Positions 3,682-59,099 of a stretch of 64,000 nucleotides of DNA are shown in pieces. The DNA is from Deinococcales bacterium. Lineage in GTDB: Bacteria > Deinococcota > Deinococci > Deinococcales > JAAFIG01. The notes beneath the pieces were generated by a model. It searched no databases, was not told the origin of the DNA, and saw only the letters and a list, made by a program, of their open reading frames with translations. The stretch covers positions 160,001 through 224,000 of the forward strand of contig JANNVX010000088.1 in the NCBI GenBank assembly GCA_031414595.1. The letters run 5' to 3'. Both the position numbers and the translations under genes were made by a program. The number at the start of each line of letters is the position of its first letter. The stretch's first letter is position 1.

Positions 3682-6351
3682 ATGCCCGTACTATCAATTG
3701 GAGACCGTCGCCTCGGAGCAATACTTTTACAACTTGGGTATGTATCAGACACAGACTTACAACGTGCTTTGGAAAAACACGCCGAACTCGGTGGTCGTTT
3801 AGCCGATATTTTGATCGACAATGGGATTGTCAATGAACGACGAATTGCCAGAGCCATCGAAGATGAACTTGGGTATCCTTTGGTCAATTTGGTGCTGCTC
3901 GAGCCAGAACCAGAAGTAACCGCCTTAATAGACGGCAATAAAGCCCAAGAACTGATGGCGTTTCCCTTTAAGTTCGAGAATGGCAAATTGCGGGTCGCCT
4001 TTGTTGACCCACTGAACACCATGGCAATAGAAGCCATCGAAGATGCCACAAATTGTGTTGTAGACCCGCACCAAGCCCTGCGTGACCATATTAAATGGGC
4101 GATTGCCACCTATTACCCCGAATTGGGTTTGGATATTCCAGAACTCGGTAAGTTGTCCAGCCCCGAAGAAGAACGGCTTGGCAATCGTTTGGCGCGTAAA
4201 GGGGTCATCACCGATGGGCAACTCGAGGAAGCTCTGGCGCTCCAAGAGCCAAATGGCGAACCGATAGGCAAAATTTTGGTGCGCTTAGGCTACTTACCCG
4301 AAGTCGAATTGTTTCGGGTGCTTGCCGAACAAGCCAATGCGCCGTTTATTGAAGATAGTATTTCCTTGGCTGTGCCAGAAGAAGTCTCGAGTTTACTGCT
4401 GCGTACCGATGCAGTGCGTTTTCAAGCCGTGCCAATCAGCGATGATGGCGTGACAATCACCATTGTTTGCCCTGAGCCAAAACGCCAACCAGACATTCAA
4501 GCCTTGTTCAAAAAACAAGTGCGAATTTCAATGATGGCACCTACCCAAGTCGAAGCCTTGATTGACCGTATCTATGTGTTCAAAGGGCAGGTAGGTACAA
4601 CTTTAATCATAGATGGTAAAATTAACCGTGAACAACTTGCCGAAGCGCTTAAAATCCAACGCAAAGAGGGGAAGTCCAAACCGCTTGGTGAAGTCCTTGT
4701 AGAACTCGGCTATGCCAGTTCCGATGAAGTAGACCGCGCCCTTGCCAAGCAAAAAACGGGTGGTGGTCGTCTCGAGGATACGCTGGTGCAGTCTGGCAAA
4801 CTCTCCCCAGAAATGCTGGCGAAGTCCTTGGCAGTGCAATTGGGCTATGAATTTGTCAATCCCGGGCAAGATGCCCCAGACCCCGGAGTGATTACCTTAA
4901 TCCCCGAAAATCAAGCGCGGCGTTATACACTTTTTCCTTATAAGATGCAGGGCAATGCACTGCAAGTTTTAATGAAAGACCCACGCAATGTCTTTGCCAT
5001 AGACGACTTAAAACTGATGACTGGGCGCGAGATTATTCCCGTCGTCGCCATCGAAGGCGATATTCAAAAACTGATTGACCGAGCGTATGGTGCAAGCGGA
5101 ATAAACGCCGATGAGTTAAATAAAGAACTGGCAGCCCTTGGTTCTGGTAGCAGTGGCAAAGTCGAAGAAATAGACTCGAGTTTAGACGATAACGCTGTGG
5201 TTCGCACGGTTGATCATGTCATCCGTGAAGCGATTCTGGCAGAGGCTTCGGATATTCACATCGAACCCACCCCAGACTTGGTGCGGGTTCGTTTTCGCAT
5301 AGACGGTTCGCTCAAAGAAATCACCACCCTGCCGAGGGCGAGTGCCAACAGTATTGCCGCCCGTATCAAAATCATGGGCGGCTTGGATATTGCTGAACGC
5401 CGCGTACCCCAAGATGGTCGGGTTAGTTTTAAGTCTAAAGGCATCAACTGCGATTTGCGTCTTTCTACCCTTCCCGTCAAATACGGTGAAAAAATTGTCA
5501 TGCGTGTGCTGCAAAAAGCTACCAACATTCCAGAAATCGAGGATTTGGGTTTCTCAGATTATAACTTAGAACGCTACAAAGACCTGATTCAAATCCCTTA
5601 CGGAATCTTTTTAATTACTGGTCCGACAGGTTCTGGTAAGTCCTACACGACCTTCTCGAGCCTAAAACGAATTGCTACCCCAGATATTAATGTCACCACC
5701 ATTGAAGACCCTATCGAATACGAAATTCCAGGCTTAAACCAATCACAAGTCAATAATGCGGCGGGTATGACTTTTGCGCGGGCGCTTAGGTCTTTTTTGC
5801 GGCAAGACCCAGACGTTATTATGGTCGGCGAAATCCGTGACACTGAAACCGCTAAAATTGCGGTTGAAGCTGCCCTGACAGGACATTTGGTGGTCGGAAC
5901 ACTCCACACCAATGATGCGGCTGGTGCAATTACTCGTCTCGAGGAAATGGGAGTAGAACTTTTCAATGTTTCGGCTTCCTTAGTTGGGGTACTAGCTCAG
6001 CGTTTAGTGCGTAAAGTCTGCAAAGACTGCAAACAAGAACTGCCCGCCGACCCTGAAGTGCTACGCCGCCTCGGAGTCAGTGAGGAGCAAGTGGTCGGAC
6101 GTACCATCGTTAAAGGTTTGGGCTGCAACAAATGCAGTGATACAGGTTATAAAGGTCGTATGGCAATCCACGAATTGATGGTGGTGGACGATCATGTTCG
6201 CAAGGCAATCATTGAACATAAAACTTCGACTGAAATCAGACAAATTGCCAGAGAAAAAGCTGGGCTTGTGACCTTAATGGAAGATGGTCTCGAAAAAGCC
6301 CTGCAAGGTAAAACCACGCTTGAGGAAATCGCCAGCGCAATCTCTGACTAA
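3682..6351 (+). CDS. pilB: Type IV pilus assembly ATPase PilB/PilF with N-terminal MshEN/GSPII repeats
   Basis: Repeated RLGxxL...LxxAL MshEN-type motifs; GPTGSGKS Walker A, TIEDPIEY, LRQDPDVIMVGEIRD, TGHLVVGTLHTND, CxxC...CxxC. Confidence 0.95.
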   Translation: MPVLSIGDRRLGAILLQLGYVSDTDLQRALEKHAELGGRLADILIDNGIVNERRIARAIEDELGYPLVNLVLLEPEPEVTALIDGNKAQELMAFPFKFENGKLRVAFVDPLNTMAIEAIEDATNCVVDPHQALRDHIKWAIATYYPELGLDIPELGKLSSPEEERLGNRLARKGVITDGQLEEALALQEPNGEPIGKILVRLGYLPEVELFRVLAEQANAPFIEDSISLAVPEEVSSLLLRTDAVRFQAVPISDDGVTITIVCPEPKRQPDIQALFKKQVRISMMAPTQVEALIDRIYVFKGQVGTTLIIDGKINREQLAEALKIQRKEGKSKPLGEVLVELGYASSDEVDRALAKQKTGGGRLEDTLVQSGKLSPEMLAKSLAVQLGYEFVNPGQDAPDPGVITLIPENQARRYTLFPYKMQGNALQVLMKDPRNVFAIDDLKLMTGREIIPVVAIEGDIQKLIDRAYGASGINADELNKELAALGSGSSGKVEEIDSSLDDNAVVRTVDHVIREAILAEASDIHIEPTPDLVRVRFRIDGSLKEITTLPRASANSIAARIKIMGGLDIAERRVPQDGRVSFKSKGINCDLRLSTLPVKYGEKIVMRVLQKATNIPEIEDLGFSDYNLERYKDLIQIPYGIFLITGPTGSGKSYTTFSSLKRIATPDINVTTIEDPIEYEIPGLNQSQVNNAAGMTFARALRSFLRQDPDVIMVGEIRDTETAKIAVEAALTGHLVVGTLHTNDAAGAITRLEEMGVELFNVSASLVGVLAQRLVRKVCKDCKQELPADPEVLRRLGVSEEQVVGRTIVKGLGCNKCSDTGYKGRMAIHELMVVDDHVRKAIIEHKTSTEIRQIAREKAGLVTLMEDGLEKALQGKTTLEEIASAISD

Positions 6352-6360
6352 GTTCAGGTG

Positions 6361-6389
6361 AATCCACCAGTCAAACTGGTGGATTTTTT
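6361..6389 (+). terminator. Intrinsic terminator after pilB
   Basis: AATCCACCAGT-caa-ACTGGTGGATT followed by T run. Confidence 0.85.
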
Positions 6390-6423
6390 ATGCCCGAAAT
6401 TACGGTAGACTGATACTGGGAAT

Positions 6424-9279
6424 ATGACAGCCACCGCCGTCACAACTGTTCATTTGTCAACTTTAGGGCAACACCGTCTCGAGGGTCGTTCATTTACTCG
6501 CCCAAAAGCCGTGGCGTTTTTGACCTACTTACTGTTTGAAGGTCGGCAAAATCGGCATTTTCTGGCAGATTTTTTCTGGCAAGATGCCGAAGACCCAATG
6601 AATAGCCTACGCAATCAAATTTTTCAGCTTAAACCTTTTGTCGCAGATGCCCTAGTAACCTCACGGCAAAGCATCGAATTTATTGGAACTTGTGATGCCC
6701 TCGAGCTACTGCATTTACTCGAACTGGGGCAATTAGAAGCAGCCATAGCACTTTATCAAGGCGAATTTCTAGCTGGTTTTGAAGCACCGGACAACATCGA
6801 ACTGGCTGCATGGCTCAAAACCACCCGCCAATTTATTAAACGCCAAGTTCTCGAGGCTTATTTACAACTCTGCGAAAAGGCTTTAGCGCAAAAAAACCTT
6901 GACCAGATAGAGCCATACCTCGAGCAAGCCCAGAATGTACTGAATTTGGGCAGCACCGACTTAAAATCGTGGTTTACCCGACGAGTTGAGGACTTACAAA
7001 GTCGTATCCAAGAACAACAAAAACAAGTTACCCCCCATAATTTAATACCTTCCAGCAGCGAATTTATTGGACGAAGCCAAGAAATCAGTACAATTTTAAT
7101 CAATTTTCAAAATCAAGCCCAGTTGCTAACCCTGTTTGGCTTTGGCGGCATTGGCAAAACTACGCTTGCGCTCGAGACTGCCCGAACTGCTTTGCAGACC
7201 CAACAATACTTAGACGGTATTTACTTTATTGCCTTAGAAACAGCCCAAACCGAAAACGATTTACTGGCTCGAGTCGTCACGACCCTAGAAATAACTTTAC
7301 AAACCAGTCAGCCGATGCTTGAGCAGATTAAAACCTTTATTGGCGTTAAATCCATGTTGCTGGTTTTAGACAATTTCGAGCAACTGACCGAACAAACCCA
7401 CTTAATCGCCGAATTACTCGAGAACAGCCCAAATCTGCGTGTACTTTGCACCAGCCGTGAAGTGCTTGGCTTACAAGCCGAACATGTCTACCCGATTTCT
7501 GGACTCGAGACTACAAATATCAGTAGTGGCGCAGTGCAACTCTTTACCACTCGAGCCGCCGAAGAGTTTTCGAGCCAAGAACTTGAAATTATTTTAGAGA
7601 TTGTCCGAGTCTTACAAGGTATCCCATTAGCCATAGAACTGGCAGTCCCACAATTAAAGACTTTTAGTTTGCTCGAGTTACAAGCTGCCTTGCAAAAAAG
7701 CATGGATGCCCTACAAAGCCAAACCACCGAACTACCCGAGCGTCAACGCAGCATCCGAGCCGTGTTTTTACATTCATGGGCATTACTGAGCCAAGCCGAA
7801 CGCCAAGGCTTACAGCGCATGGCAGTTTTTAAGAACGGCGCAAACCGCCATGCGCTCTTAACCATAGCCCAAATTAGTCTATCGCAGATTGCCAATTTAA
7901 TAGATAAATCCTTTGTGCAACGGGCTGGACAACAACGGTACACGATTCATCCGCTTATTCTCGAGTACACTTTGGAGCTACTACAAGCCGACTCGGAATT
8001 TGCACCGATGCTAGGTAAGCACGCGTTTTTTTACCTAGACCAAATTGGCAACGAATTACCAAAAATTAGGGGAGCAGAAGCGGCGGCTGTGATGCAGAAA
8101 ATAGAAACTGATTTTGACAACCTAAAAGCAGCTTGGGCATGGGCGCTCGAGAATAAGGATTTTCCTCGAATAGCGGCACTCGAGGAAATGGTGGTCTACT
8201 TTGACCAGAAAGCACTTTTTTTTCAGGGGATAGAGTTTTTTGAAGAAGCGAATAGCAAACTTAAAGATGTTGTAAACCAGCCGTTGATGCTAAGTGGAAT
8301 AGCCATTGGAATTGCTTGGTTAAATTACCGTTTGGGGAACGCTGAGAAAGCAAAAATGTATGCAGAGTGTGCAGTTGAGTGTGCTAAAAGCGAGCTAATT
8401 TTAGGAAAAAATAATCTATCAAAAGCGTTCAATATTTTAGGAAGTATTGCATCATTAGATTATGAACACACAGCAGCATTGAATTATTTTAATGAAGCGG
8501 TTCGATATTGTGACTCTGATAATCTTAAAATTAGGAAAGTGACGCTTCTTTTAAGGATAGCAGGAATTTACCGAGAACTCGAGGATTTTGAAGGGTTTTG
8601 GGAAGTTTGGGAGTCTGCTTATGCAATAAATCAAGAATTGAATCTCGATACTTTAAGAGTTTTAGTGACCATACAAAAAGCAAACTTCATACTTTACTAT
8701 GTTTCAAAAGAAGAAATTATAAAATTTATACCTGAAATGATCGAAGTTTATAATCTAACTCGAAGTAGTTCTGTTAATGGTCAACCTTATTTTGAAGTTT
8801 TAATTTGCCAGTGTTATTTAGCTGTCAAAGATTTGAAAAATGCGGAATTCTGGCTTCAAAAGTTCATCCTAAGAGATACGTCTCAAATGAATCACCAGCT
8901 CAACTTTTTCTCGCAATCACTATTCGGAAAAATTGAAATACTGAAAGGGAATCGTAAAAATGCCAAAGACATATTGATCAACATTTTCTTTGTTCCCTTT
9001 GAAAGACACAATATTTTAACATTCTTTATGACTTCGGTTAGCTTAGTTGACTTACTCCCAGAGGTTTATAGCAACGATTTTCGGGATTTAGTAAAACTGG
9101 TCATCACTCATAAAGCGATGACCAGTCAGAAGATTTTAGTTAAGCAGTATTTGAAAGAAGAGTCTTTTGATGTGAGACTGGAATTACTTCAAGAGACTTC
9201 TGACCAGCAAATAGAATCTGCTCAACAGCGTATTATTGGTATGTTACGGACCACCGCCGTAGTTAGTAGGGTCAGCTAG
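6424..9279 (+). CDS. AfsR/SARP-like regulator: wHTH-BTAD, NB-ARC (STAND) ATPase, TPR region
   Basis: N-terminal SARP-like region (PKAVAFLTYL...LADFFW...SLRNQIFQLK; LYQGEFLAG), FIGR, Walker A GFGGIGKT, Walker B LLVLDNFE, GIPLAIELA, HPLI, helical TPR-like C-terminus. Confidence 0.88.
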   Translation: MTATAVTTVHLSTLGQHRLEGRSFTRPKAVAFLTYLLFEGRQNRHFLADFFWQDAEDPMNSLRNQIFQLKPFVADALVTSRQSIEFIGTCDALELLHLLELGQLEAAIALYQGEFLAGFEAPDNIELAAWLKTTRQFIKRQVLEAYLQLCEKALAQKNLDQIEPYLEQAQNVLNLGSTDLKSWFTRRVEDLQSRIQEQQKQVTPHNLIPSSSEFIGRSQEISTILINFQNQAQLLTLFGFGGIGKTTLALETARTALQTQQYLDGIYFIALETAQTENDLLARVVTTLEITLQTSQPMLEQIKTFIGVKSMLLVLDNFEQLTEQTHLIAELLENSPNLRVLCTSREVLGLQAEHVYPISGLETTNISSGAVQLFTTRAAEEFSSQELEIILEIVRVLQGIPLAIELAVPQLKTFSLLELQAALQKSMDALQSQTTELPERQRSIRAVFLHSWALLSQAERQGLQRMAVFKNGANRHALLTIAQISLSQIANLIDKSFVQRAGQQRYTIHPLILEYTLELLQADSEFAPMLGKHAFFYLDQIGNELPKIRGAEAAAVMQKIETDFDNLKAAWAWALENKDFPRIAALEEMVVYFDQKALFFQGIEFFEEANSKLKDVVNQPLMLSGIAIGIAWLNYRLGNAEKAKMYAECAVECAKSELILGKNNLSKAFNILGSIASLDYEHTAALNYFNEAVRYCDSDNLKIRKVTLLLRIAGIYRELEDFEGFWEVWESAYAINQELNLDTLRVLVTIQKANFILYYVSKEEIIKFIPEMIEVYNLTRSSSVNGQPYFEVLICQCYLAVKDLKNAEFWLQKFILRDTSQMNHQLNFFSQSLFGKIEILKGNRKNAKDILINIFFVPFERHNILTFFMTSVSLVDLLPEVYSNDFRDLVKLVITHKAMTSQKILVKQYLKEESFDVRLELLQETSDQQIESAQQRIIGMLRTTAVVSRVS

Positions 9280-9384
9280 GGTGACTCCTAACAGGCTTGA
9301 AGCACCAAACATCAGAGCAAGCAAAGCTAAAGTAACAACCAAGGGCTTTGTGAGTTGCATGAGAACTAATTTTAAATTTTTCAT
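9244..9384 (-). CDS. Unannotated 46-aa secreted prepeptide MKNLKLVLMQLTKPLVVTLALLALMFGASSLLGVTLA-DPTNYGGGP
   Basis: Hand translation; AAGGAGGT RBS just before ATG; basic N-terminus, hydrophobic core, TLA signal-peptidase-like site; tail nearly identical to neighbour's C-terminus. Confidence 0.8.
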   Translation of the reverse strand: MKNLKLVLMQLTKPLVVTLALLALMFGASSLLGVTLADPTNYGGGP

Positions 9385-9426
9385 AAACACCTCCTTCGGC
9401 TATACTTAGCCGAAGGAGGTGTTTAT
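9383..9426. promoter_or_regulatory. Perfect 20-bp inverted repeat covering the RBS and start of the peptide gene (possibly also a terminator)
   Basis: ATAAACACCTCCTTCGGCTA-tact-TAGCCGAAGGAGGTGTTTAT. Confidence 0.75.
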
Positions 9427-9482
9427 TTGCAATCGTCGCGGCTTCTAAAACGTTTACTGTTTAACAGAGTAGGAAGAATAGA

Positions 9483-9935
9483 TTAGGGTCCACCACCAAA
9501 GTTTGTTGGATTACCAATATCATCACCCATTTTAGCAACAGGCAACTCGAGCAATTCGCCTTTCGCGTTGACCAATTCAAATTGCCCTTCAACTGGATTT
9601 GAAGTTCCAGCCGCTTCGCCCGGAATAACATACAGCCACCAGCCTTTGTAGACAATTTGTTGTTGGGCTTTGTCTGGGTTTCCGCCGCGTGTAATTGTGC
9701 TTAGGTCGCCTTGGTTCACGCCGCTTCCAGCTTTGGGTGTGCCAATTAATGGACTCCATTGCAAAATGAATTCCTGCATATAACCGGGGAATTGGTCGCC
9801 CCACGGGATGTACTTGTGGAATGGGTCGGTTTGCATTGGGCGGTACAAGTACACGGTTTGGTTTGTGCCAGTGACCAAGTGTGTGCCGTCACTCGAGACT
9901 TGGATAATGACTGTTTGGGCTGCTTCGTCTGCCAT
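9483..9935 (-). CDS. COG4315/Lipoprotein_15-like repeat protein without signal peptide; C-terminal tail NPTNFGGGP
   Basis: LVTGTNQTVYLY...WSPL...LSTITRGG...QIVYKGWWLY resemble the two Lipoprotein_15 repeats; GAGGTG RBS. Confidence 0.65.
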   Translation of the reverse strand: MADEAAQTVIIQVSSDGTHLVTGTNQTVYLYRPMQTDPFHKYIPWGDQFPGYMQEFILQWSPLIGTPKAGSGVNQGDLSTITRGGNPDKAQQQIVYKGWWLYVIPGEAAGTSNPVEGQFELVNAKGELLELPVAKMGDDIGNPTNFGGGP

Positions 9936-10107
9936 GTTTCACCTCTGGGTTAGATTTTATTGCTTTTAGAGTCTATCAGAAATAGAACGGAAAACGGATT
10001 GCTCGAAGTGAACGAGGTTGCAAAATCACAAGAATAGATTCACAAACAACGTAATCGTGAATAAAATCACAAAATAGGCACTGCTTTTCTTGATATGCTT
10101 ACTAGCC

Positions 10108-19598: not shown

Positions 19599-19610
19599 TT
19601 TGTGCATTAC

Positions 19611-19642
19611 AATGCCCCTCGAGTCAATTCTCGAGGGGCATT
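19611..19642 (+). terminator. Hairpin after rplI built on two CTCGAG sites
   Basis: AATGCCCCTCGAG-tcaatt-CTCGAGGGGCATT. Confidence 0.65.
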
Positions 19643-19685
19643 CATTTGGTTCTTTCAAAACTCGAGAAATACGCTAGAATTAGGT

Positions 19686-20588
19686 ATGCAATCACGATTT
19701 ATCAACCCATTCACAGATTTTGGTTTCAAAAAAATCTTTGGCGAAGAAGCCAGTAAGCCATTGTTGCTCGACTTCTTAAACGCCTTACTGCCAGCCCAGC
19801 ACCAGATAAAAGACCTCAGTTTTAAGAATCTCGAGCAACTCCCAGAAACAGAAAGCCAACGCAGGGCTGTCTACGATATTTACTGCGAAAGTGATAGCGG
19901 TGAACGGTTCATTGTCGAATTACAACGATTACACCAAGCCTATTTTAAGGATAGAACTATTTACTACAGCACTTTTCCAATCAGAGAACAAGCCGAAAAA
20001 GGCAATTGGAATTACAGGTTAAATGCGGTTTACTGCATTGGAATCCTAGATTTTACCTTTGACGACTTTGAGCCAGAACCCATTAAAAGCGAAGTAATAC
20101 AAACCGTTAATCTAAAAAATCAGCATAACCAAGTCTTCTACGATAAACTCACGCTGATTTACCTCGAGATACCGAACTTCAAAAAGACCGAAAGTCAACT
20201 CGAGACGCGCTTAGATAAATGGTTGTACTTTATCAAAAACCTAGAATATCTCGAGAGTATCCCCGAGATATTTAAGGATGTGGTCTTTACCCAAGCCTTT
20301 GAAGCCGCAAAAATGGCGAATTTGGGATCAGTAGAATTATACGGGTACGAACAGAGTCTAAAAATCATGCGTGATAATTACTCGACTTTTCAGTACGCGG
20401 TGGATACTGCGTTAGCCGAAGGGCGCGAAGCGGGACTTGCCGAAGGACTTGCCGAAGGCGAAGCCAAAGGCGAACGGCAAGCTAAGCTCGAGATTGCTAA
20501 AACCCTGCTCAGGCAGGGCATGACCAAGGAACAAGTTGGGGCGATAACTGGTTTAGAAACAACTGACTTAAAGTTTGGTGAGTCCTGA
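19686..20588 (+). CDS. Rpn family recombination-promoting nuclease / PD-(D/E)XK protein, copy 1
   Basis: FINPFTDFGFKKIFG, YDIYC, FIVELQ, DRTIYY, LDKWLYF, C-terminal EG repeats and IAKTLL...AITGL. Confidence 0.9.
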   Translation: MQSRFINPFTDFGFKKIFGEEASKPLLLDFLNALLPAQHQIKDLSFKNLEQLPETESQRRAVYDIYCESDSGERFIVELQRLHQAYFKDRTIYYSTFPIREQAEKGNWNYRLNAVYCIGILDFTFDDFEPEPIKSEVIQTVNLKNQHNQVFYDKLTLIYLEIPNFKKTESQLETRLDKWLYFIKNLEYLESIPEIFKDVVFTQAFEAAKMANLGSVELYGYEQSLKIMRDNYSTFQYAVDTALAEGREAGLAEGLAEGEAKGERQAKLEIAKTLLRQGMTKEQVGAITGLETTDLKFGES

Positions 20589-26454: not shown

Positions 26455-27636
26455 TCAGAGTCGGCTGCGCGGGTCAAGTGCATCTCGCAGACCGTCGCCT
26501 AAGAAGTTGATACTCAGGCTGGTCAGTAAAATAAATAGTCCGGGCCAGAATACGGTAAACGGATTTTGGAAAATCGCTTCTTGCGCCCCAGAAAGCATGT
26601 TTCCCCAACTGGCGGTCGGTTCTTGAATCCCAAAGCCTAAAAAACTCAAGGCAGCTTCGGAGACAATCGTGTTACCGACATCTAACGTGACTTGCACAAT
26701 AATCGGGGCGATGGCATTAGGCAATAAGTGCGAGAGCATAATCCGCCAATCGCTCGAGCCTAATGCCCGGGCTGCATCGGTAAATTCACGTTGCCGTAGA
26801 CTCAGCACCAGACCACGAATCACTCGGGCTGTGCCAAGCCAACCAAAAAGTGTCAGCACAAAGATAATTAAAACAATCGAACGCGACTGTCCAAAAAAGG
26901 TGTTCAGTACGTCGCCAAGTGGTACTTCTGGATTGGCTAGTAAGCCTGCCAAAATCAGTAAGAACGGGATATTCGGTAAACTGAGCATCACATCAATCAG
27001 TCTCGAGATGGCATTGTCTATATCTATAATGATGGCTTTGTAGAAGGCATTGTATGCCGCAAAAGCGGCTAAGCCCCCACCAATTAGCCATGCCACCACC
27101 GCTAAAACTCCAGTAAAGGTAGCGGCAAATTGCGAGGTGATTTGCAGTAAGAAGAAAATCAAGACCGCCCAGACCAACCAACGTAAACCAGTCCGCCAGA
27201 TAAAACTCGAGCCTTCAGCATTTTTGCGTTCATTCCATAAGGGGCTACCAACACCCACCGACATCAACCACGGAATACCACTGTAGTAACCAGCCACCAA
27301 GCCCATGATGACACCAATAATGGCAGATAGAAAAGCCACCACAATACCAACCAAGAGTGAGACCCGTCCGGCGTACAAAACTCGAGAAAAGACATCGCGT
27401 CCAAGCCCATCTGTTCCCATCCAATGTGCGACTGACGACCCAGCATAAAGGTTCGAGGAATCTATTTTGTCTGGTGCATAGGGTGCAATAAATGGGGCAA
27501 AAATAGCCACCGAGAACAACAGCATTAAGACCACACCAGAAACCATGGCTGCACGGTGCTTGGTGAAACGTCGCCAAATTTTAGTGTTGGAGCTTTCGTC
27601 TTTCTTTAGTTTTTCTGGAATAGTAGCAATAGACAT
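26455..27636 (-). CDS. oppC: Oligopeptide/dipeptide ABC permease (OppC/DppC) with extra TM insert
   Basis: HWMGTDGLGRDVFSR, EFTDAARALG, EAALSFLGFGI, SWGNML, GDGLRDALDP. Confidence 0.88.
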   Translation of the reverse strand: MSIATIPEKLKKDESSNTKIWRRFTKHRAAMVSGVVLMLLFSVAIFAPFIAPYAPDKIDSSNLYAGSSVAHWMGTDGLGRDVFSRVLYAGRVSLLVGIVVAFLSAIIGVIMGLVAGYYSGIPWLMSVGVGSPLWNERKNAEGSSFIWRTGLRWLVWAVLIFFLLQITSQFAATFTGVLAVVAWLIGGGLAAFAAYNAFYKAIIIDIDNAISRLIDVMLSLPNIPFLLILAGLLANPEVPLGDVLNTFFGQSRSIVLIIFVLTLFGWLGTARVIRGLVLSLRQREFTDAARALGSSDWRIMLSHLLPNAIAPIIVQVTLDVGNTIVSEAALSFLGFGIQEPTASWGNMLSGAQEAIFQNPFTVFWPGLFILLTSLSINFLGDGLRDALDPRSRL

Positions 27637-27648
27637 AATTTTTAGTCC

Positions 27649-28839
27649 TTAATTGTAACGAATGCGTGGGTCAACGAGGGCGTAGGCTAAATCGGTCAGC
27701 AAATTGGCTGCCAGAGTCACAATACTGAGCATCATTAAAATCACCATGGCGACGTTGTAATCTTTTTTAACCACACTATCAAGCAGTGCCGTTCCCATTC
27801 CGGGCCAATTAAAAACAGTTTCGGTTAGCACTGCTCCGTTTAGAATCCCGGGGACAGATAAACCCACCAGTGTCACAATCGGAATCAGCGCATTTCTAAG
27901 GGCGTGTTTGTAAATTACAATCCGTTCAGATAAACCTTTTGCTCTTGCGGTGCGTACAAAATCTTGGTTGATCACCTCGAGCAGACTGGCTCGCATAAAC
28001 CTAGTCCAGCCAGCGATTGAAATAATAGATAAAGCCACCGCAGGTAAAACCAAATGGTGCAAACGGTCAAGTAACCAAGCCCACCAAGATTGTGCCGTCA
28101 CTTCCTGCCCAACGCTCTGCCCTTGGGAAACATAATCGCCTTTGGTAACAGACGGGCGAATCCCAGCAGGTAAAGTAAATTCTTTGGGAATCTCGAGTTT
28201 GGTGGCTTCGTCATAAACGCCAATCGTGATAAACGATGTGCCTTCTCGAGTTTCTACCCTTTGCACTTGACCCGTGACATCAAATTGCTTGGTACTTTCG
28301 ATGTACTGAGTCACGCCTTCGGTTTGCATACCGCCTGTGGGAAAAATCTTAAAAGTCACACCAAATAAAATCAGCATCATGATTCCAAGCCAAAAGACTG
28401 GCACACTAAAACCGACAAATGATAAAAAGGTGGTCACATAATCGAGTAAGCTGTACTGCCGTACCGCCGCATAAATTCCAATTGGAATACCAATAAAAAG
28501 GGCAATAAAAAAGGCGGTTGCCGAAAGGGTGATGGTATTGCCTAAGCGCTGTTCAAAAACAAAATTGGCGGCTGGTTCATAGCCGTTTTCCCTTGATAAG
28601 CCAAAATCAAGCCGCACCGCTCGATTTAACCACTTGCCATACTGCACATACCAAGGTTGGTCTAAGCCGTATTCGCGGCGCAACCTGAGAATATCGGCTT
28701 GGGTTATTTTTGGGTTGGCTAGTCTGAGTTCATCAATAAAATCGCCCGGTTGCAATTGAATCAAGCCAAAAATTGCCATCGAGACTGCCAGTAAAATTGG
28801 GACCATGGCAATGATCCGCCGAGATGCGTATAGGAACAT
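27649..28839 (-). CDS. oppB: Oligopeptide/dipeptide ABC permease (OppB/DppB) with inserted beta domain
   Basis: YGLDQP, DFVRTARAKGL, KHALRNAL, ETVFNWPGMG, DPRIR. Confidence 0.88.
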   Translation of the reverse strand: MFLYASRRIIAMVPILLAVSMAIFGLIQLQPGDFIDELRLANPKITQADILRLRREYGLDQPWYVQYGKWLNRAVRLDFGLSRENGYEPAANFVFEQRLGNTITLSATAFFIALFIGIPIGIYAAVRQYSLLDYVTTFLSFVGFSVPVFWLGIMMLILFGVTFKIFPTGGMQTEGVTQYIESTKQFDVTGQVQRVETREGTSFITIGVYDEATKLEIPKEFTLPAGIRPSVTKGDYVSQGQSVGQEVTAQSWWAWLLDRLHHLVLPAVALSIISIAGWTRFMRASLLEVINQDFVRTARAKGLSERIVIYKHALRNALIPIVTLVGLSVPGILNGAVLTETVFNWPGMGTALLDSVVKKDYNVAMVILMMLSIVTLAANLLTDLAYALVDPRIRYN

Positions 28840-44359: not shown

Positions 44360-45334
44360 ATGCAAACGCAGTTCATTAATCCTTTTACCGATTTTGGGTT
44401 CAAAAAAATCTTTGGACAAGAAGCCAGCAAGCCAATGCTGCTTGATTTTCTCAATGCCTTGTTGCCAAAAAAACACCAAATAAAGGATTTGAGTTTTAAG
44501 ACCCTCGAGCAACTGCCCGAAACCGAAGCCCAACGCCGCGCTGTCTACGATTTGTACTGCGAATCTGATTCTGGTGAACGATTCATTGTTGAGTTACAAC
44601 GCTTACGCCAAGCCTATTTTAAGGACAGAACTATTTACTACAGCACCTTTCCAATTCGTGAGCAAGCCGAAAAAGGCAATTGGGATTATCGGCTAAATGC
44701 GGTTTACTGCATTGGTATTTTGGACTTTACCTTTGATGACTATGAACCAGAACCAAAAAGAAGTGAAGTGATCCAAGAAGTCAAACTCAAAAACCAAAAT
44801 AATCATGTTTTTTACGACAAATTAACCCTGATTTACCTCGAGATACCAAACTTTAAGAAAACCGAAGCCGAACTCGAGACGCGCTTAGATAAATGGTTGT
44901 ACTTCATTAAAAACCTTGAATATCTCGAGAGCATCCCCGAGATTTTTAAGGATGTGGTGTTCATACAAGCCTTTGAAACCGCAAAGATGGCGAATCTTGG
45001 TTCGAGCGAGTTATTTGGTTATGAACAAAGTCTAAAAATCATGCGCGATAATTATGCGACCCAGAAATACGCGATTGAAACGGCATTGGCAGAAGGACGC
45101 GAAGCTGGTCACGAAGCTGGGCGCGAGGCTGGACTTGTGGAAGGACGCGAAGCAGGAATTGTAGAGGGACGCGAAGCAGGAATTGCCGAAGGTGAAGCCA
45201 GAGGTAAAACTGAAGGCGAACGCCAAGCCAAACAAGCCATTGCCAAAACCTTGCTCGAGCAGGGTATGAGCAGAGAACAAGTCAGTTCGATTACTGGTTT
45301 AGAGGTAGCCGACTTAAAGGACGGTGAATCATGA
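44360..45334 (+). CDS. Rpn family nuclease / PD-(D/E)XK protein, copy 2
   Basis: Close paralogue of 19686-20588 with longer EGREAG repeat tract; leaderless -10 TAGAAT. Confidence 0.9.
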   Translation: MQTQFINPFTDFGFKKIFGQEASKPMLLDFLNALLPKKHQIKDLSFKTLEQLPETEAQRRAVYDLYCESDSGERFIVELQRLRQAYFKDRTIYYSTFPIREQAEKGNWDYRLNAVYCIGILDFTFDDYEPEPKRSEVIQEVKLKNQNNHVFYDKLTLIYLEIPNFKKTEAELETRLDKWLYFIKNLEYLESIPEIFKDVVFIQAFETAKMANLGSSELFGYEQSLKIMRDNYATQKYAIETALAEGREAGHEAGREAGLVEGREAGIVEGREAGIAEGEARGKTEGERQAKQAIAKTLLEQGMSREQVSSITGLEVADLKDGES

Positions 45335-54484: not shown

Positions 54485-57358
54485 ATGACCCTTGCACTGC
54501 ACTTGCTTGGCTCACCTCGTCTCGAGTTAAATCGGCGGGTCATCAAACTTGGCTTAAAACCAATGTTGGTGCTGGCGTACTTGGCACTCGAAGGCAGGGC
54601 ATCACGCCGCGACTTGGCGCAATTGCTCTGGTCAAATGCCTCAGACCCCTTAAACAGTGTTTCGGCGGCTCGAGTCACAATCCGCGACGCTATCAAGAAG
54701 CACCTATTGGGCGACAACGAAACGCTTTTTTTACAAGCTGGTTTTTACTGCGATGTCCATATTTTTACCAAAGCCCTCGAATCCCAAGACCACGAAATTT
54801 GGCAGCAAGCGCTCGAGCTTCGCCGCGAAGTATTTCTCGAGGGGGTGCGTTTACCCGAATGGATTGAAGGTTTTGGGGCAGAATTTGAAGAATGGTTACT
54901 GGGTCAGCGCGAACAACTCGAGGAAACCCACGCCGAACTCAACTGGCGACTAGCACGGCATTATTTGCAGCAAAAAGACTTTGAGAATGCTTTGCAGCAC
55001 CTTGAAATCACCCAAGCTGCACATTTGCCACCCCGCGAAGATGCGACCCGCCTACTGATTTTGTGTGCTGGCGCAGTTGGGCGTGAAATCAAAGCCCAGA
55101 CTGCTTATTTAAGACTCGAGAAACGCTTGCAAGACGAACTCGAGTTAAGCCCTAGCAACCCCACAAAAACTGCCCTGAGCCTCGCTCGAGAAAACCCCAA
55201 AGCCTGCCAAGCTGCGCTACATGACGAATTTCGCAGTCAGAATCCGACCATTTCGCTCTCCTTGGGTTTGGAGGAAACACAAGTGCCACTTTTTGGACGT
55301 GAACACGAATTGAAACAAATAGACAGCGAACTAAAGCGTGCCAAAAGCAAACTGGCGCGGTTGGTGGTGTTGTCTGGCGAACCGGGGGTTGGCAAAACCC
55401 GTTTAGCCAAAGAAGCCATTCGTGGTCAAGATTTGTTTGTCTTAAGTGGGGTAGCATCGCCAACTGGTGTTTCGCTCGGGGTTTTTGAAAAAGCCGTGCG
55501 GCAAGCCCTAAGTCAACAACCCATTGGTCATTTTAACCGACTTTGGCAACAGGCACTCGCTGCATTTTTACCCGATACCATAAGTGCTACCCAAATCGAA
55601 CCAAGCAAAGAACATTTATTTGCCGCGATTACCGCCCTGTTCTGCCACCTTGAGCGCCCAACGGTGCTACTGCTGGACGACTTACAGTGGGCAGATAAAA
55701 CTTCGCTTGAGCTATTGCTGCATTTAGTACACAATCCCTCACCTCAAGGCTTGTTGGTACTGGCAACCCTGCGTGATACCGAACAGCCACGCAGCGACCT
55801 CAAAAGCGTTTTTGAACTGATTACTCGAGAACAACTGGGCATTAAAATTGAGGTCGGTGGCATCAGCCCTGCTGCCGTCAATCAACTGGTGCAAACCCTA
55901 GGGCGACAAACCGACTCGCTACAATTACATAAAAAAAGCGGCGGAAACCCATTTTTCTTACTCGAGTTACTAAAAAGCAATTCCGACACCAGCCAATGGC
56001 AAGACTTGGTAAAAAGCCGCCTTGCTCACCTGCCCGAAACTGCCCAGCAACTGCTCGAGGTGGCAGCCCTGCTTGGTGACGGCAGCACTTTAGCCATGCT
56101 CAGAAGTGTTTCGGGGCGTAGCTTAGAAGAAATTAAAGAAGACCTTGACCAACTTGCCAATGCCGATGTGCTGCATTTAGAAACCGACGGAACACACTTT
56201 AAGCACGATTTAATCCGTGAAGTGATTTTAGAGCATATCCGCCCTGCCCGAAAACAAATTCTGCACCTGCGGGCGGCTCGAGCCTTAAAACCCAACCAAG
56301 CTGGGATTCATGCGTTGGCATCTCTTAACGCTTGGGAAGAAAACGACACGCCCAAAATGCTGCTGAGTTTCCTCGAGACTGGCAAACAACACAGTATCCG
56401 CGGCGATTTACCAGCCGCCCTAGAATGGTTTCTCCATGCCGATAAAAACAGCCGTAACGCCAACGAGCGGCTGCAAGCCCTGACCGAACGCGCCTCGGCA
56501 CTTGAGCGCTATGGACGGCACGAAGTGGCACTCGAGACACTGAGCAAAGTAGCTATTCTCGAGGGGAGTGTGACTGATCCAGTGTTACGCAGTGGGGCTT
56601 GGTTAGCCAAAGCCAATTTACTGGCACTCAAAATGCACCGACTCGAAGAGGCGCAGGTTTTGGTGACTCAGGCATTTACGACGCTCGAAGGACTGAGTTA
56701 CAGCGCGGCGCAATTGGTTCGGTCAGATGCGCTAAATATCCAAGGTACGATTTACCGTTTAGAAAAGAAATATACGCAAGCTGCCACAGCCTTTGAAGAT
56801 AGTTTAGCCATTCGCCAAGCGCTCGAGGACGATGTAAGGATAGCCACAACAATGATGAATCTTGGGACGATTTATACTCGACTAAACGACTCTCGAGCCG
56901 AAAACACCCACCAACTTTGCCTCGTCCTATACACCAAAATCGGTGACGAAAATGGCATTTCTCGGACTTTGAATAACTTAGGTATGCACTATACACGCCA
57001 CGAAAAATACGACGAAGCACTCAAGTCTTATCAAGAAACACTGAGGCTTAGCCAAGTTTTACTTGACCCGTGGGCAGAAGCTCGAGCCTATCAAAATATC
57101 GGAGCAACCCACTATTATCGCTCAGAATATGAATTGGCGCAAAATAATTATTTATTGGCTCTCGAAAAAGCCAATTCATTCAAGGATTCTGAAAATCAAT
57201 TGCTTGCTTTGCTAAACCTTCTCGAGGTGTGCCAAGTTCTAAACACCGATTCTACTATCTGGCTAGAGCAAATCAAACCTTTTACGACCAATGAATCCTT
57301 TATTGCCTACCATACAGAAATCAACAATTACCTTTCACAACAAGGAGTGAAATCATGA
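54485..57358 (+). CDS. SARP/BTAD-AAA (STAND) ATPase-TPR regulator
   Basis: LHLLG...VLAYLAL...[43 protein letters not shown], TPRs (TLNNLG, AYQNIG). Confidence 0.88.
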   Translation: MTLALHLLGSPRLELNRRVIKLGLKPMLVLAYLALEGRASRRDLAQLLWSNASDPLNSVSAARVTIRDAIKKHLLGDNETLFLQAGFYCDVHIFTKALESQDHEIWQQALELRREVFLEGVRLPEWIEGFGAEFEEWLLGQREQLEETHAELNWRLARHYLQQKDFENALQHLEITQAAHLPPREDATRLLILCAGAVGREIKAQTAYLRLEKRLQDELELSPSNPTKTALSLARENPKACQAALHDEFRSQNPTISLSLGLEETQVPLFGREHELKQIDSELKRAKSKLARLVVLSGEPGVGKTRLAKEAIRGQDLFVLSGVASPTGVSLGVFEKAVRQALSQQPIGHFNRLWQQALAAFLPDTISATQIEPSKEHLFAAITALFCHLERPTVLLLDDLQWADKTSLELLLHLVHNPSPQGLLVLATLRDTEQPRSDLKSVFELITREQLGIKIEVGGISPAAVNQLVQTLGRQTDSLQLHKKSGGNPFFLLELLKSNSDTSQWQDLVKSRLAHLPETAQQLLEVAALLGDGSTLAMLRSVSGRSLEEIKEDLDQLANADVLHLETDGTHFKHDLIREVILEHIRPARKQILHLRAARALKPNQAGIHALASLNAWEENDTPKMLLSFLETGKQHSIRGDLPAALEWFLHADKNSRNANERLQALTERASALERYGRHEVALETLSKVAILEGSVTDPVLRSGAWLAKANLLALKMHRLEEAQVLVTQAFTTLEGLSYSAAQLVRSDALNIQGTIYRLEKKYTQAATAFEDSLAIRQALEDDVRIATTMMNLGTIYTRLNDSRAENTHQLCLVLYTKIGDENGISRTLNNLGMHYTRHEKYDEALKSYQETLRLSQVLLDPWAEARAYQNIGATHYYRSEYELAQNNYLLALEKANSFKDSENQLLALLNLLEVCQVLNTDSTIWLEQIKPFTTNESFIAYHTEINNYLSQQGVKS

Positions 57359-58959
57359 AACGTTTTTTACTTTTCCTCAGCACATTAGCAATTTGTGTAG
57401 CTTGTAATCCTACAAATCCGCCCTTACTCGAGATACAAAAGGTACGACCCCGGTTTGTTGTCCCACTGGCAGAAGTTGTTATCACTGGCGCAGGTTTCTC
57501 GAACAGTTCTGTGGTAACAATAGGTGGACAAACAGTCAATGTAAATTCATTTCAAACAACCGAGCTAAAAGTCAAAGCACCAAACTTACAAGCTGGTGCA
57601 TACCTTGTTACTGTGACCAATTCTCCTCAGTCTTTTGCCACCAGTAAAGACTTAAATATTCTTGCCACGCCCGATAATTATTTCCCCGACCAAGCCTTGG
57701 TGGTTTTTAAGGAAAATATAGACCAGAACAAAGCCAGCCAAATCGCCCAACGCGCCAGTATGATTGTAGCAGACTTCAAACCAGCCGAGGTTGGCGCAAC
57801 TGGCATTTGCAGCAATACCCTTGCAGTTCTCGAGCAACAAGGCGGGACTTCTCGAGCCGTGGATACCGCCAGCGATATTCCTGAAGTTTTAGAAGCAAAT
57901 CCGCATTTGATTGAGACTGGTGGCGCATATTCCGATTCAGGACCCACCATAGAACATAAAAACGAATTCACTGCCCTCGAGTTAGACCGCGCCTACACAC
58001 ACTGGAAAACCCTCCTACCAAATATGCAAAACCGTTCCCCTCGAGTTGCAGTTTTGGATACTGGGGTTTCTGAACATTACGATTTCAGGAATTTGTTTAA
58101 TCTGCTCGATACAAATTTATTGGCTGGGCGTAATTTCACTAATGAACGTGTCAACCTTGCCATCCCAATCGAGTCTGACACCGCCGACAATGCCAAGAAT
58201 GCAAGCGGCACTCGAGTCGGGCATGGAACAGCAGTTGCAGCAATTGTCGCCGCTCGGGATTCGGAAAGCGGCACGAACTTTACGCAATTCTGGCAAGTCG
58301 GGGTGCTGCCCGCCAGAAATAATAATCAAAGTGGTCCAAATGGCGCAGATGGCGCTAAAATTCTCCCCCTCAAAGTCTGCAATGAAGCGCTCCAATGTAA
58401 AGGCATTGAGGTCATAAAAGGACTTTGTTACGCGATAAGCCAGCAACCCGATGTGATTAACTTTTCACTTGGAACGCAACAACCCTCGAGTATTGTTAAA
58501 CAAGTTATAAAAGCCGTGACTGATGCCAATATCGTACTGGTTGCTTCGGCGGGAAATCGTGGTGCAGCCCCAAATTATCCGGCTGCCTACAGCCTCGAGT
58601 TACCGATTATTGCGGTGGGCAGTGTGCGTTACGACGCTAGTGGAAAGTACAAAGCCTCAAGTTTTAGTGTTCCGGGTGCATGGGTCAGTCTGGTTGCTCC
58701 GGGCGAAACCCAGAGTGCCAGTTTTGATTCGAGTGGTGTAGATGGTTTTGGCTACCGCACTTTTGAAGGGACTTCGTTTGCTGCACCGTGGGTCAGTGGA
58801 GTTGCGGCAATGCTTAAAGCCATCAACCCAAGCGCTACACCGCTCGAGATTAAAAATAAAATTATCGCTGGGGCTTCACGGGTTTGGCTCGATGATTGTG
58901 CGCTCGAGAAATGCGGGGCTGGGTTGCTGAATGCCGCCAATGCGATTGGCGCTCCTTAA
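57355..58959 (+). CDS. S8 subtilase lipoprotein with IPT/TIG domain
   Basis: Lipobox CVAC; VVITGAGFS TIG; triad VAVLDTG, HGTAVA, GTSFAAP; SAGN. Confidence 0.9.
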   Translation: MKRFLLFLSTLAICVACNPTNPPLLEIQKVRPRFVVPLAEVVITGAGFSNSSVVTIGGQTVNVNSFQTTELKVKAPNLQAGAYLVTVTNSPQSFATSKDLNILATPDNYFPDQALVVFKENIDQNKASQIAQRASMIVADFKPAEVGATGICSNTLAVLEQQGGTSRAVDTASDIPEVLEANPHLIETGGAYSDSGPTIEHKNEFTALELDRAYTHWKTLLPNMQNRSPRVAVLDTGVSEHYDFRNLFNLLDTNLLAGRNFTNERVNLAIPIESDTADNAKNASGTRVGHGTAVAAIVAARDSESGTNFTQFWQVGVLPARNNNQSGPNGADGAKILPLKVCNEALQCKGIEVIKGLCYAISQQPDVINFSLGTQQPSSIVKQVIKAVTDANIVLVASAGNRGAAPNYPAAYSLELPIIAVGSVRYDASGKYKASSFSVPGAWVSLVAPGETQSASFDSSGVDGFGYRTFEGTSFAAPWVSGVAAMLKAINPSATPLEIKNKIIAGASRVWLDDCALEKCGAGLLNAANAIGAP

Positions 58960-58972
58960 GTTCATTTTTGCT

Positions 58973-59004
58973 AACCACTCGAGTAAATTCTCGAGTGGTT
59001 TTTT
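58973..59004 (+). terminator. Intrinsic terminator built on two CTCGAG sites
   Basis: AACCACTCGAG-taaatt-CTCGAGTGGTT-TTTT. Confidence 0.75.
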
Positions 59005-59026
59005 ATTGTCTTTCACAGCTTTGTTT

Positions 59027-59061
59027 GTTTCAGGGGAGTTTCAGAGGGGTAGGGCTAAATT
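59027..59061 (+). promoter_or_regulatory. 11-bp-period direct repeat before putative -10 (SARP-type operator)
   Basis: GTTTCAGGGGA-GTTTCAGAGGG, 7 nt, TAAATT. Confidence 0.45.
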
Positions 59062-59099
59062 ATACCCATCAGCGAAACGGTTCGCTTACAGGAGACAAT

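Follow-up and report, generated by a model that had tools for sequence, protein, structure and literature searches.

A SARP-type STAND regulator and convergent genes with Gly-Pro tails form a conserved module with a hypervariable sensor-tail cassette in Deinococcota

We analysed a window of 64,000 nucleotides, the whole stretch from whose first letter all positions below are counted, in the genome of a Deinococcales bacterium (GCA_031414595.1, contig JANNVX010000088.1, positions 160,001 to 224,000). The genome (G000) comprises 4,488,778 bp at 47% G+C, and the window lies in its contig C88. On the plus strand, 6424..9279 encodes a SARP-type STAND transcription factor of 951 amino acids (aa), which is faced from the minus strand by two shorter genes. 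The farther of these (9483..9935) encodes a 150-aa protein without a signal peptide that ends ...GDDIGNPTNFGGGP (NPTNFGGGP, tail codons 9486-9512), and the nearer is a small open reading frame (ORF) at 9244..9384 (ATG at 9384, stop codon at 9244-9246) encoding 46 aa, a signal-like leader followed by the tail DPTNYGGGP. Between the 150-aa gene and the small ORF lies a hairpin with a perfect 20-bp stem (9383..9426), and a hypervariable block of 1.3 kb (8195..9512), a putative specificity cassette, takes in the sensor-coding 3' third of the regulator gene, the small ORF, the hairpin and the last ~10 tail codons. An earlier note on this stretch had reported the 46-aa ORF at 9244-9384 with a strong ribosome-binding site, its leader and DPTNYGGGP tail, its convergence with the regulator gene with a 36-nt overlap, and the NPTNFGGGP end of the next gene, all of which are present in the sequence. 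We find that these genes belong to a module that is conserved in Deinococcota, and that the sensor of the regulator and the tails facing it are exchanged together.

The regulator consists of a winged helix and a BTAD domain (~aa 1-200), an NB-ARC NTPase (aa 222-436), a winged-helix linker to ~aa 521 and an all-helical TPR-like sensor (aa 526-950). The NB-ARC domain scored 40.9 bits over aa 222-436 (Pfam cut-off 23.5), the Walker A sequence GFGGIGKT and the motif LLVLDNFE are visible in the translation, and Pfam also reported a TPR_12 match. The AlphaFold2 model has a mean predicted local distance difference test score (pLDDT) of 85.7, with strands and helices at aa 10-110 and long helices at aa 125-200, and displays the NTPase, winged-helix and C-terminal repeat-sensor fold of STAND proteins; its top Foldseek match was 6mfv_A, a STAND protein with a TPR sensor (E = 3e-14), followed by NRC3, ZAR1, CED-4 and Apaf-1. 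Pfam, AlphaFold2 and Foldseek thus agree with the earlier description of a STAND protein with a SARP-type N-terminus and a TPR sensor, with BTAD just under the cut-off here and above it in relatives (64.2 bits in the regulator of L079 and 38.2 bits in the protein encoded at window 54485-57355). About 22 SARP-STAND-TPR paralogues are present in the genome (27 tblastn matches), a large expansion for 4.5 Mb. Membership in the FxSxx-COOH and HaaT families was rejected, the NCBIfam scores being 42.7 bits against 300 and 48.6 against 1125 and confined to the NTPase region, and so was membership among the Avs and other anti-phage STAND proteins, as neither the regulator nor the tail protein matched a PADLOC model; one paralogue likewise had no PADLOC match, and three further STAND proteins matched the generic TPR model only. 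As a side observation, a second SARP/AAA_16/TPR STAND regulator of 957 aa is encoded in the window at 54485-57355 (plus strand), with a sensor of a different type and no GP-tailed partner; directly after it come an S8 subtilase with a TIG domain (57355-58956, plus strand) and a 1015-aa VWD/CARDB protein (58896-61940, plus strand).

A chance origin of the tails beside STAND genes is excluded by a genome-wide count. In the six-frame translation of the 4,488,778-bp genome, PTN[FYW]GGG occurs twice, at the two C-termini in the window. We identified 33,808 ORFs of at least 40 codons, of which 19 end in GP and 5 in G-x-G-P. All 5/5 G-x-G-P ORFs lie close to a STAND gene (at 0, 0, 7, 204 and 801 nt), with 2.9% of the genome lying no more than 1.5 kb from one of the 24 STAND places. 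These ORFs neighbour four STAND genes, namely the window regulator and its three best paralogues among the 27 matches, and only these four align past query residue 700, sharing much of its sensor region; the other ~20 SARP-STAND paralogues have no GP-tailed partner. The remaining three partners (145, 182 and 193 aa, ending …IGAGP, …PGFGP and …AGIGP) are distant homologues of the 150-aa protein. Between the two window tails, 10 of 30 bases differ, and since 5 of these differences are synonymous third-position changes, the shared residues have been kept by selection and do not reflect a fresh duplication.

Sequence comparisons suggest that the 150-aa protein consists of a diverged PF03640 domain (Lipoprotein_15 / COG4315-like) with two repeats, followed by a C-terminal tail predicted to be disordered. 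A word-indexed search returned close relatives only, all unnamed or annotated as 'hypothetical'. When 1.84 billion representatives were searched with a profile built on 12 family members (A1), 174 proteins matched at E <= 1e-3, the near matches being single proteins of 130-190 aa and the distant ones secreted lipoproteins and multi-repeat proteins with strong PF03640 scores. Terminal Gly-Pro was present in 23/24 A1 matches shorter than 215 aa at E <= 1e-10, the exception being a 56-aa fragment. In an alignment of 37 members (A3), the invariant columns were one Leu and the terminal G and P; because the A3 rows had been picked for GP ends, conservation of the terminal GP inside A3 is not independent, and 23/24 is the independent figure. 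PF03640 matched 18/37 A3 members (E <= 0.01) and the NCBIfam model of the SCO0930 family lipoproteins matched 10, with two tail-type members above the PF03640 cut-off of 24.4 (P0012, 26.2 bits; P0046, 34.4 bits). The window's own 150-aa protein was not matched by PF03640, Pfam reported no domain in either this protein or the small ORF, and neither Pfam nor NCBIfam holds a model for the tailed PF03640 branch. The AlphaFold2 model of the tail protein is mediocre (pLDDT 63.7), with residues 129-150 below 50, so that the tail is predicted to be disordered, as a docking peptide would be expected to be. Searches with the fold against the PDB with Foldseek (E <= 0.001) and against 48,161 chains with VIA-align (Z >= 2) returned no match, the profile found nothing meaningful among PDB sequences, and two metagenome scans for further alleles found no relative. 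Weak evidence of expression comes from an RNA-library contig of a close relative that spans 9741-9942 at the 150-aa gene. Upstream of the tail gene, a possible operator consists of three copies of TTGTGA(T/A)T(T/C)T (window 10021-10072, minus strand, 27 and 14 nt apart), which are conserved in L014, in part in L015, and missing from L016. A promoter and terminator scan was uninformative for a target promoter.

The pairing of tail gene and regulator is maintained far beyond this genome. The 150-aa protein was matched in 18/41 related genomes. In the species collection (loci L014-L024, of which L018 is cut by a contig end, leaving 10 evaluable), the tail gene is followed by a convergent regulator gene with little or no gap in 10/10 loci, 9 of them confirmed by alignment; the regulator of L023 is known from a 163-aa fragment only. 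Across Deinococcota, to which the evidence for the association of tail and STAND genes extends, A3 matches were found in 128/301 genomes, a tally that takes in ordinary PF03640 genes and an unpublished genome, G265, on which nothing else in this analysis depends. Among the best 24 loci of the A3 search over the 301 genomes, all 23 evaluable ones contain a PF03640-like ORF ending in GP, and in 20/23 a STAND gene (930-1040 aa; recognised by Pfam in 12 loci and by tblastn in 8) lies beside it, directly convergent in 19 and behind a 302-aa ORF in one. A large Deinococcus-like genus usually has two tandem tailed genes, neither with a signal peptide, and one module is carried by plasmid P5 of Deinococcus gobiensis (NC_017806.1, L090), where the regulator is annotated as 'NB-ARC domain-containing protein'. 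These findings show that a module of a SARP-type STAND factor and one or two convergent Gly-Pro-tailed genes, with touching 3' ends, is conserved in Deinococcota. Its sequences further indicate that the constant partner of the STAND regulator is a cytoplasmic PF03640-like protein of ~150 aa and that the small ORF is an extra. The peptide-receptor pairing proposed earlier is retained in part: exclusive co-occurrence and co-swapping strongly support a specific link between tail and sensor, but the conserved partner is the 150-aa protein and not a secreted-looking peptide. Two side observations concern variants of the module. On the D. gobiensis plasmid, which also holds PIN-domain and transposase genes, the first 7 nt of the NB-ARC regulator gene are shared with an HNH endonuclease gene (L090, 9277-9636) that is read from the same strand. 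In a paralogous module outside the window (G000:C88:280865-281666) and in L043/L079, a conserved ORF of 288-302 aa, ending …FFVTGKFWSKIF… and found in G000 and another family, stands between the tail gene and the STAND gene.

Comparison of related loci shows that sensor and tails are replaced together as one cassette, which is the strongest result of this analysis. Between G000 and L015, identity per 100-nt window was 72-95% (mostly 80-95%) over 6301-8200 and 9501-10000, vs. 11-51% over 8201-9500, which places the breakpoints near 8185-8200 and 9510-9515. The cassette starts at ~aa 590 of the regulator, and its borders fall at the sensor start, right after a conserved AAWAWALENKDF motif, and at the tail start, after DD[IV]G. 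The two regulator proteins have an identity of 0.88 over aa 250-585 and 0.21 over aa 600-951, and between loci that are ~88% identical elsewhere the protein identity of the replaced block is 8-32%. L016 shows the opposite pattern when compared with G000 (0.67 in the core and 0.68 in the sensor), and L015 and L017 have a second sensor type in common (0.64 and 0.55). Sensors of type A (G000, L014 and L016) go with [ND]PT..GGP tails and the small ORF, and the loci with sensors of type B (L015 and L017) have [DN]PGVPNYGGP tails and lack the small ORF. The cores of four loci in the next genus are 0.86-0.91 identical and their sensors 0.30-0.52, and the tail differs in each. With core identity controlled, tail similarity correlated with sensor identity over 10 loci (partial Mantel r = 0.63, reached in 10/10,000 permutations). 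Because the gene order is convergent, sensor and tail stay together as one swappable cassette. A CTCGAG palindrome lies within ~20 nt of each border (~8178-8183 and ~9535-9540), which may be a coincidence or may mark recombination points, and at 9530 a contig of run X10 passes into a type-B tail.

The small ORF is probably a real gene, and we hold this with good confidence. Its product, MKNLK...GVTLADPTNYGGGP, has three Lys among its first 13 residues and ~24 hydrophobic residues, and the leader ends in GVTLA immediately before DPTNYGGGP; from the visible residue pattern, the leader looks Sec-signal-like. A GGAGGTG Shine-Dalgarno sequence stands 3 nt ahead of the ATG, and the 3' end of the ORF overlaps that of the convergent regulator gene by 36 nt (9244-9279). 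Between G000 and its L016 orthologue (intact, 46 aa, ending …DPTGYNGGP), we counted 16 synonymous and 13 non-synonymous differences, a ratio of non-synonymous to synonymous changes per site (pN/pS) of 0.27, which shows that purifying selection acts on the ORF. Gene callers had already predicted two orthologues, P0159 (identical with that of L016) and P0160, a protein-database entry that is intact with 47 aa and ends …GDPPGLNGGP. Both the pN/pS ratio and these predictions thus uphold the earlier note's small ORF as real. In the three orthologues, the Shine-Dalgarno sequence, the ATG and the leader are kept and the tails vary in frame, retaining ...GGP-stop. The expectation that such ORFs with varying tails would accompany homologous regulators held for the conserved leaders and variable tails; it did not hold for their distribution, with 3 intact copies and 1 truncated copy among 11 loci. 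An unrelated 43-aa ORF occupies the same slot in L019, a locus of another genus; it is preceded by a strong Shine-Dalgarno sequence without a hairpin, its product is rich in Lys at the start and has a hydrophobic core of 16 residues, and its tail reads …GPSTVNGGP. A DNA contig of another sample (run X5) matched the leader over window 9268-9318 with 1 difference in 51 nt and then continued with a different tail, …PTGGP-stop, a further tail allele on the same leader.

The hairpin between the two minus-strand genes has a minimum free energy of -39.3 kcal/mol as RNA (z = -6.47, reached by 0/200 shuffles), and L016 has the same stem with another loop. On either strand the hairpin is followed by T-rich runs and so resembles a terminator acting in both directions between the convergent genes; a simple terminator scan did not have it among its calls. 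In L016, the loop contains TATACT, 18 nt after TTGCAA, which may be read as a possible transcript start inside the hairpin. Candidate homologues of the leader were rejected: matches to ORFs of ~550 aa were weak and reflected hydrophobic similarity only (the match in G000 is a membrane helix of a polytopic protein, presumably a NuoM-like NADH dehydrogenase subunit), and a match in G010 (GVTLADPSGSGGGP in a 51-aa frame, E = 0.015) was not C-terminal and had no tail gene beside it. This frame (L083, G010:C5, 1450-1605, minus strand), a weak match that contains …SLVGVTLADPSGSGGGP… away from its end, adjoins a TPR-like ORF of 476 aa with a winged-helix-like end.

In the reading that we favour, the tail would be a ligand or latch bound by the TPR sensor, a proposition that we consider evenly balanced. 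Conserved residues of the sensor, for which N566, N670 and R704, nearly invariant across 23 divergent sensors, are our guess, would grip the constant Gly-Pro carboxylate, and the variable part of the sensor surface would recognise the 5-7 tail residues that vary, so that each sensor allele fits its own tail. As in other STAND regulators, a bound tail would set the state of the NB-ARC switch and, with it, the activation of transcription by the SARP domain. The PF03640 body may be a sensor in its own right that exposes or retracts the tail. The small ORF would provide a copy of the tail for export, which, in analogy to PapR and Phr, could be released by cleavage after ...TLA and perceived anew from outside the cell. 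Binding, target promoters and the direction of control (activation or inhibition) are inferred only, as are export, cleavage and re-import, which follow pure analogy for the small-ORF peptide; that the small ORF acts as an exported signal appears doubtful to us. A complex prediction of sensor aa 440-951 (alignment A4) with the tail protein (A3), akin to the co-folding suggested in the earlier note, gave scores of 0.30 and 0.14 against a mark of 0.32, without controls, and counts neither for nor against binding.

Several observations weigh against this reading. The ten loci of the cassette and Mantel comparisons are kin, and neither comparison is independent proof of binding, because adjacent sensor and tail codons move in one recombination. 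Three of the 23 Deinococcota loci (L059, L061 and L063) hold tandem tailed genes with no STAND gene nearby, within ~6 kb upstream and 3.5 kb downstream of L059, upstream of L061 and in its 1.5-kb flank, and in the 1.5-kb flanks of L063. Six GP-ending members (P0034, P0035, P0036, P0077, P0084 and P0095) have hydrophobic, signal-like N-termini, which would place their tails outside the cytoplasm and thus away from a cytoplasmic sensor; an Atlas look-up of one of them, P0035, gave no usable match. The BTAD score of the regulator itself, 20.4 bits, is just short of the Pfam cut-off of 22.1. No target promoter was identified, and the sequence ahead of the tail gene is not kept among orthologues, nor is an Opp or other peptide transporter linked to the module. 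For the exported peptide, the small ORF is missing at 7/11 loci (L015, L017, L020, L021, L022, L023 and L024), and in L014 a deletion took the hairpin, the Shine-Dalgarno sequence and the start of the ORF, the tail frame still ending …PTGGP. The 3' arm of the hairpin contains the Shine-Dalgarno sequence (9388-9394) and the AU of the start codon, which implies that translation of the small ORF is normally blocked or that its transcript begins inside the hairpin, and no RNA-library contig covered the small ORF, although contigs cannot show absence.

There are rival explanations. The genes might be linked without the sensor reading the tail, the Gly-Pro end serving as a handle for a protease, an exporter or a RiPP-like (ribosomally synthesized and post-translationally modified peptide) maturation enzyme and the STAND protein regulating the locus or sensing another cue. 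A conserved body or leader with a hypervariable C-terminus between fixed residues indeed recalls RiPP precursors and pro-pheromones, the members with secreted appearance would fit, the nearest NCBIfam models of the regulator are TPR proteins of RiPP systems, far under their cut-offs (HaaT 48.6/1125; FxSxx-COOH 42.7/300), and adjacency alone suffices to explain the cassette. We nevertheless regard this explanation as rather unlikely: the cassette borders are not random but fall at the sensor start and the tail start, G-x-G-P ends occur nowhere else in the genome, and no modifying enzyme, protease or exporter is conserved beside the module, whose neighbours differ by genus (an M20 peptidase here; a 334-aa protein, an HAD hydrolase and an ABC ATPase in the next genus). 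With no known RiPP enzyme among these varying neighbours, membership of a RiPP system was rejected. Another explanation confines itself to the 46-aa ORF and makes it a decaying or silent by-product, for example the remnant of a second tailed gene, in a module that is purely intracellular. The absence of the ORF from 7/11 loci and its truncation in L014 speak for this, as do a Shine-Dalgarno sequence and AUG enclosed in a strong hairpin, which also has the appearance of a terminator for the upstream gene, the lack of RNA-library contigs over the ORF, which, as said, is no sign of absence, and the tandem full-length tailed genes that fill the same slot in Deinococcus. It is hard to reconcile with a pN/pS of 0.27, with a Shine-Dalgarno sequence, ATG and leader kept in three orthologues whose in-frame tail changes retain ...GGP-stop, with an independent ORF in the same slot of another genus that has a signal-like leader and a strong Shine-Dalgarno sequence but no hairpin, and with the DNA contig of another sample that joins the same leader to another ...GGP tail, and we consider it unlikely.

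Sensor hypervariability beside a conserved NTPase core could also result from an arms race. In such a guard-and-decoy arrangement, the tail protein would be a bait on the STAND sensor, and a phage or plasmid that cleaves, alters or dislodges the tail would free the regulator to start a defence programme. The roughly 22 SARP-STAND paralogues of the genome, a regulator fold closest to NLR- and Apaf-1-type receptors, and the D. gobiensis module on a plasmid among PIN, HNH and transposase genes would suit this idea. Regulator and tail protein had no match among the PADLOC defence models, the output domain is a transcription activator and not a nuclease, protease or NADase, and the window module sits among housekeeping genes (PilB, M20 peptidase, FtsH and ClpB), all of which make a defence role quite improbable in our view; since it also needs binding of the tail by the sensor, it is a variant of the ligand-or-latch reading and does not replace it. 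As a separate observation on the window, PD-(D/E)XK 'transposase' (PDDEXK_2) genes lie at 19602-20585 and 44360-45331, the second followed by a gene for a 275-aa WD40 protein.

Among known systems, AfsR and the large SARPs of actinomycetes (SARP-NOD-TPR) have the same domain order as the window regulator, and AfsR is its best solved sequence relative (E = 7.9e-8), with similarity confined to the NTPase region (aa 210-516) and a different phylum. According to the available part of the source, NOD and TPR inhibit the SARP domain of AfsR and ATP relieves this inhibition, and AfsR is controlled by Ser/Thr phosphorylation; that part names no TPR ligand, the word 'ligand' being absent from the whole paper, and describes neither a dedicated tail-bearing partner gene nor a sensor cassette polymorphism, both of which the window module has (PMC10936776). 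In RRNPP systems (PlcR-PapR, Rap-Phr, NprR-NprX, Rgg-SHP and ComR-ComS), a cytoplasmic helical-repeat receptor stands beside a small pro-peptide gene, an arrangement that the window module resembles. The active part of an RRNPP pro-peptide is its C-terminal end, and the 46-aa ORF appears to share the Sec-type design of a leader and a variable C-terminal tail. The portions of the sources available describe RRNPP systems for Firmicutes and PlcR/PapR alleles as four pherotypes with receptor-peptide pairing (PMC2441798, PMC10075063). The window receptor differs in its NB-ARC NTPase switch and SARP DNA-binding domain, and the main tail carrier here is a folded 150-aa cytoplasmic protein that has no RRNPP counterpart. 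The regulator matched no RRNPP-type family in Pfam and is not an RRNPP member, because the NB-ARC module sits between its DNA-binding and TPR parts; of the earlier analogy, the small pro-peptide-like gene adjoining the receptor remains. A link to Opp, raised in the same context, is rejected because the OppB/OppC-like genes (26458-28839) lie 17 kb away and are unlinked to the module.

With MalT and PH0952-type STAND proteins (TPR or SUPR sensors), which include the best structural match, 6mfv_A, the regulator would have ligand-gated STAND logic in common. MalT responds to maltotriose and is restrained by inhibitor proteins, and we know of no genetically encoded peptide tail described as the cognate ligand of a protein of this type. 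In agr (AgrB-AgrD-AgrC) and comQXP, a hypervariable block covers the signal gene and the sensor part of the receptor, with conserved flanks and allele-specific groups, the receptors being membrane histidine kinases and the signals modified peptides. The window cassette resembles these blocks, but its receptor is a cytoplasmic STAND protein, its genes are convergent and its sensor and tail codons abut. In TPR carboxylate clamps (Hop with the EEVD-COOH of Hsp70/Hsp90; PEX5 with PTS1), the TPR groove reads a short disordered C-terminal peptide including the free carboxylate; the conserved N566, N670 and R704 would fit such a clamp, with a different motif (…GP-COOH). The lipoproteins of the PF03640 / SCO0930 family belong to the same superfamily as the domain of the tail protein; classical PF03640 proteins are secreted lipoproteins or multi-repeat proteins without a Gly-Pro end, whereas the tailed branch is mostly cytoplasmic and has two repeats.

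We found no description of such a pairing of a STAND protein with a Gly-Pro tail, nor any function for the PF03640 / COG4315 / Lipoprotein_15 family, in a literature search with thin coverage of subscription journals; within the same coverage, the system appears to be new, as the earlier note had supposed. The ligand of the large SARP/AfsR-type TPR sensors is unsettled, and the genome analysed here points to a candidate, a short Gly-Pro-COOH tail that is encoded beside the sensor and swapped with it, which makes sensor and tail a directly testable pair, own vs. foreign allele. The module also provides the first functional context for a branch of PF03640. It may even be the first NLR-like STAND receptor with a genetically encoded, allele-specific peptide tail as its ligand, joined in some lineages by an exported mini-gene to give a cell-to-cell or kin-recognition signal, a possibility that we regard as a rather long shot; if true, peptide quorum sensing would exist with a new class of receptor, in a phylum of diderm bacteria beyond the Firmicutes, and a working exported mini-gene would extend peptide signalling to that receptor class and that phylum.

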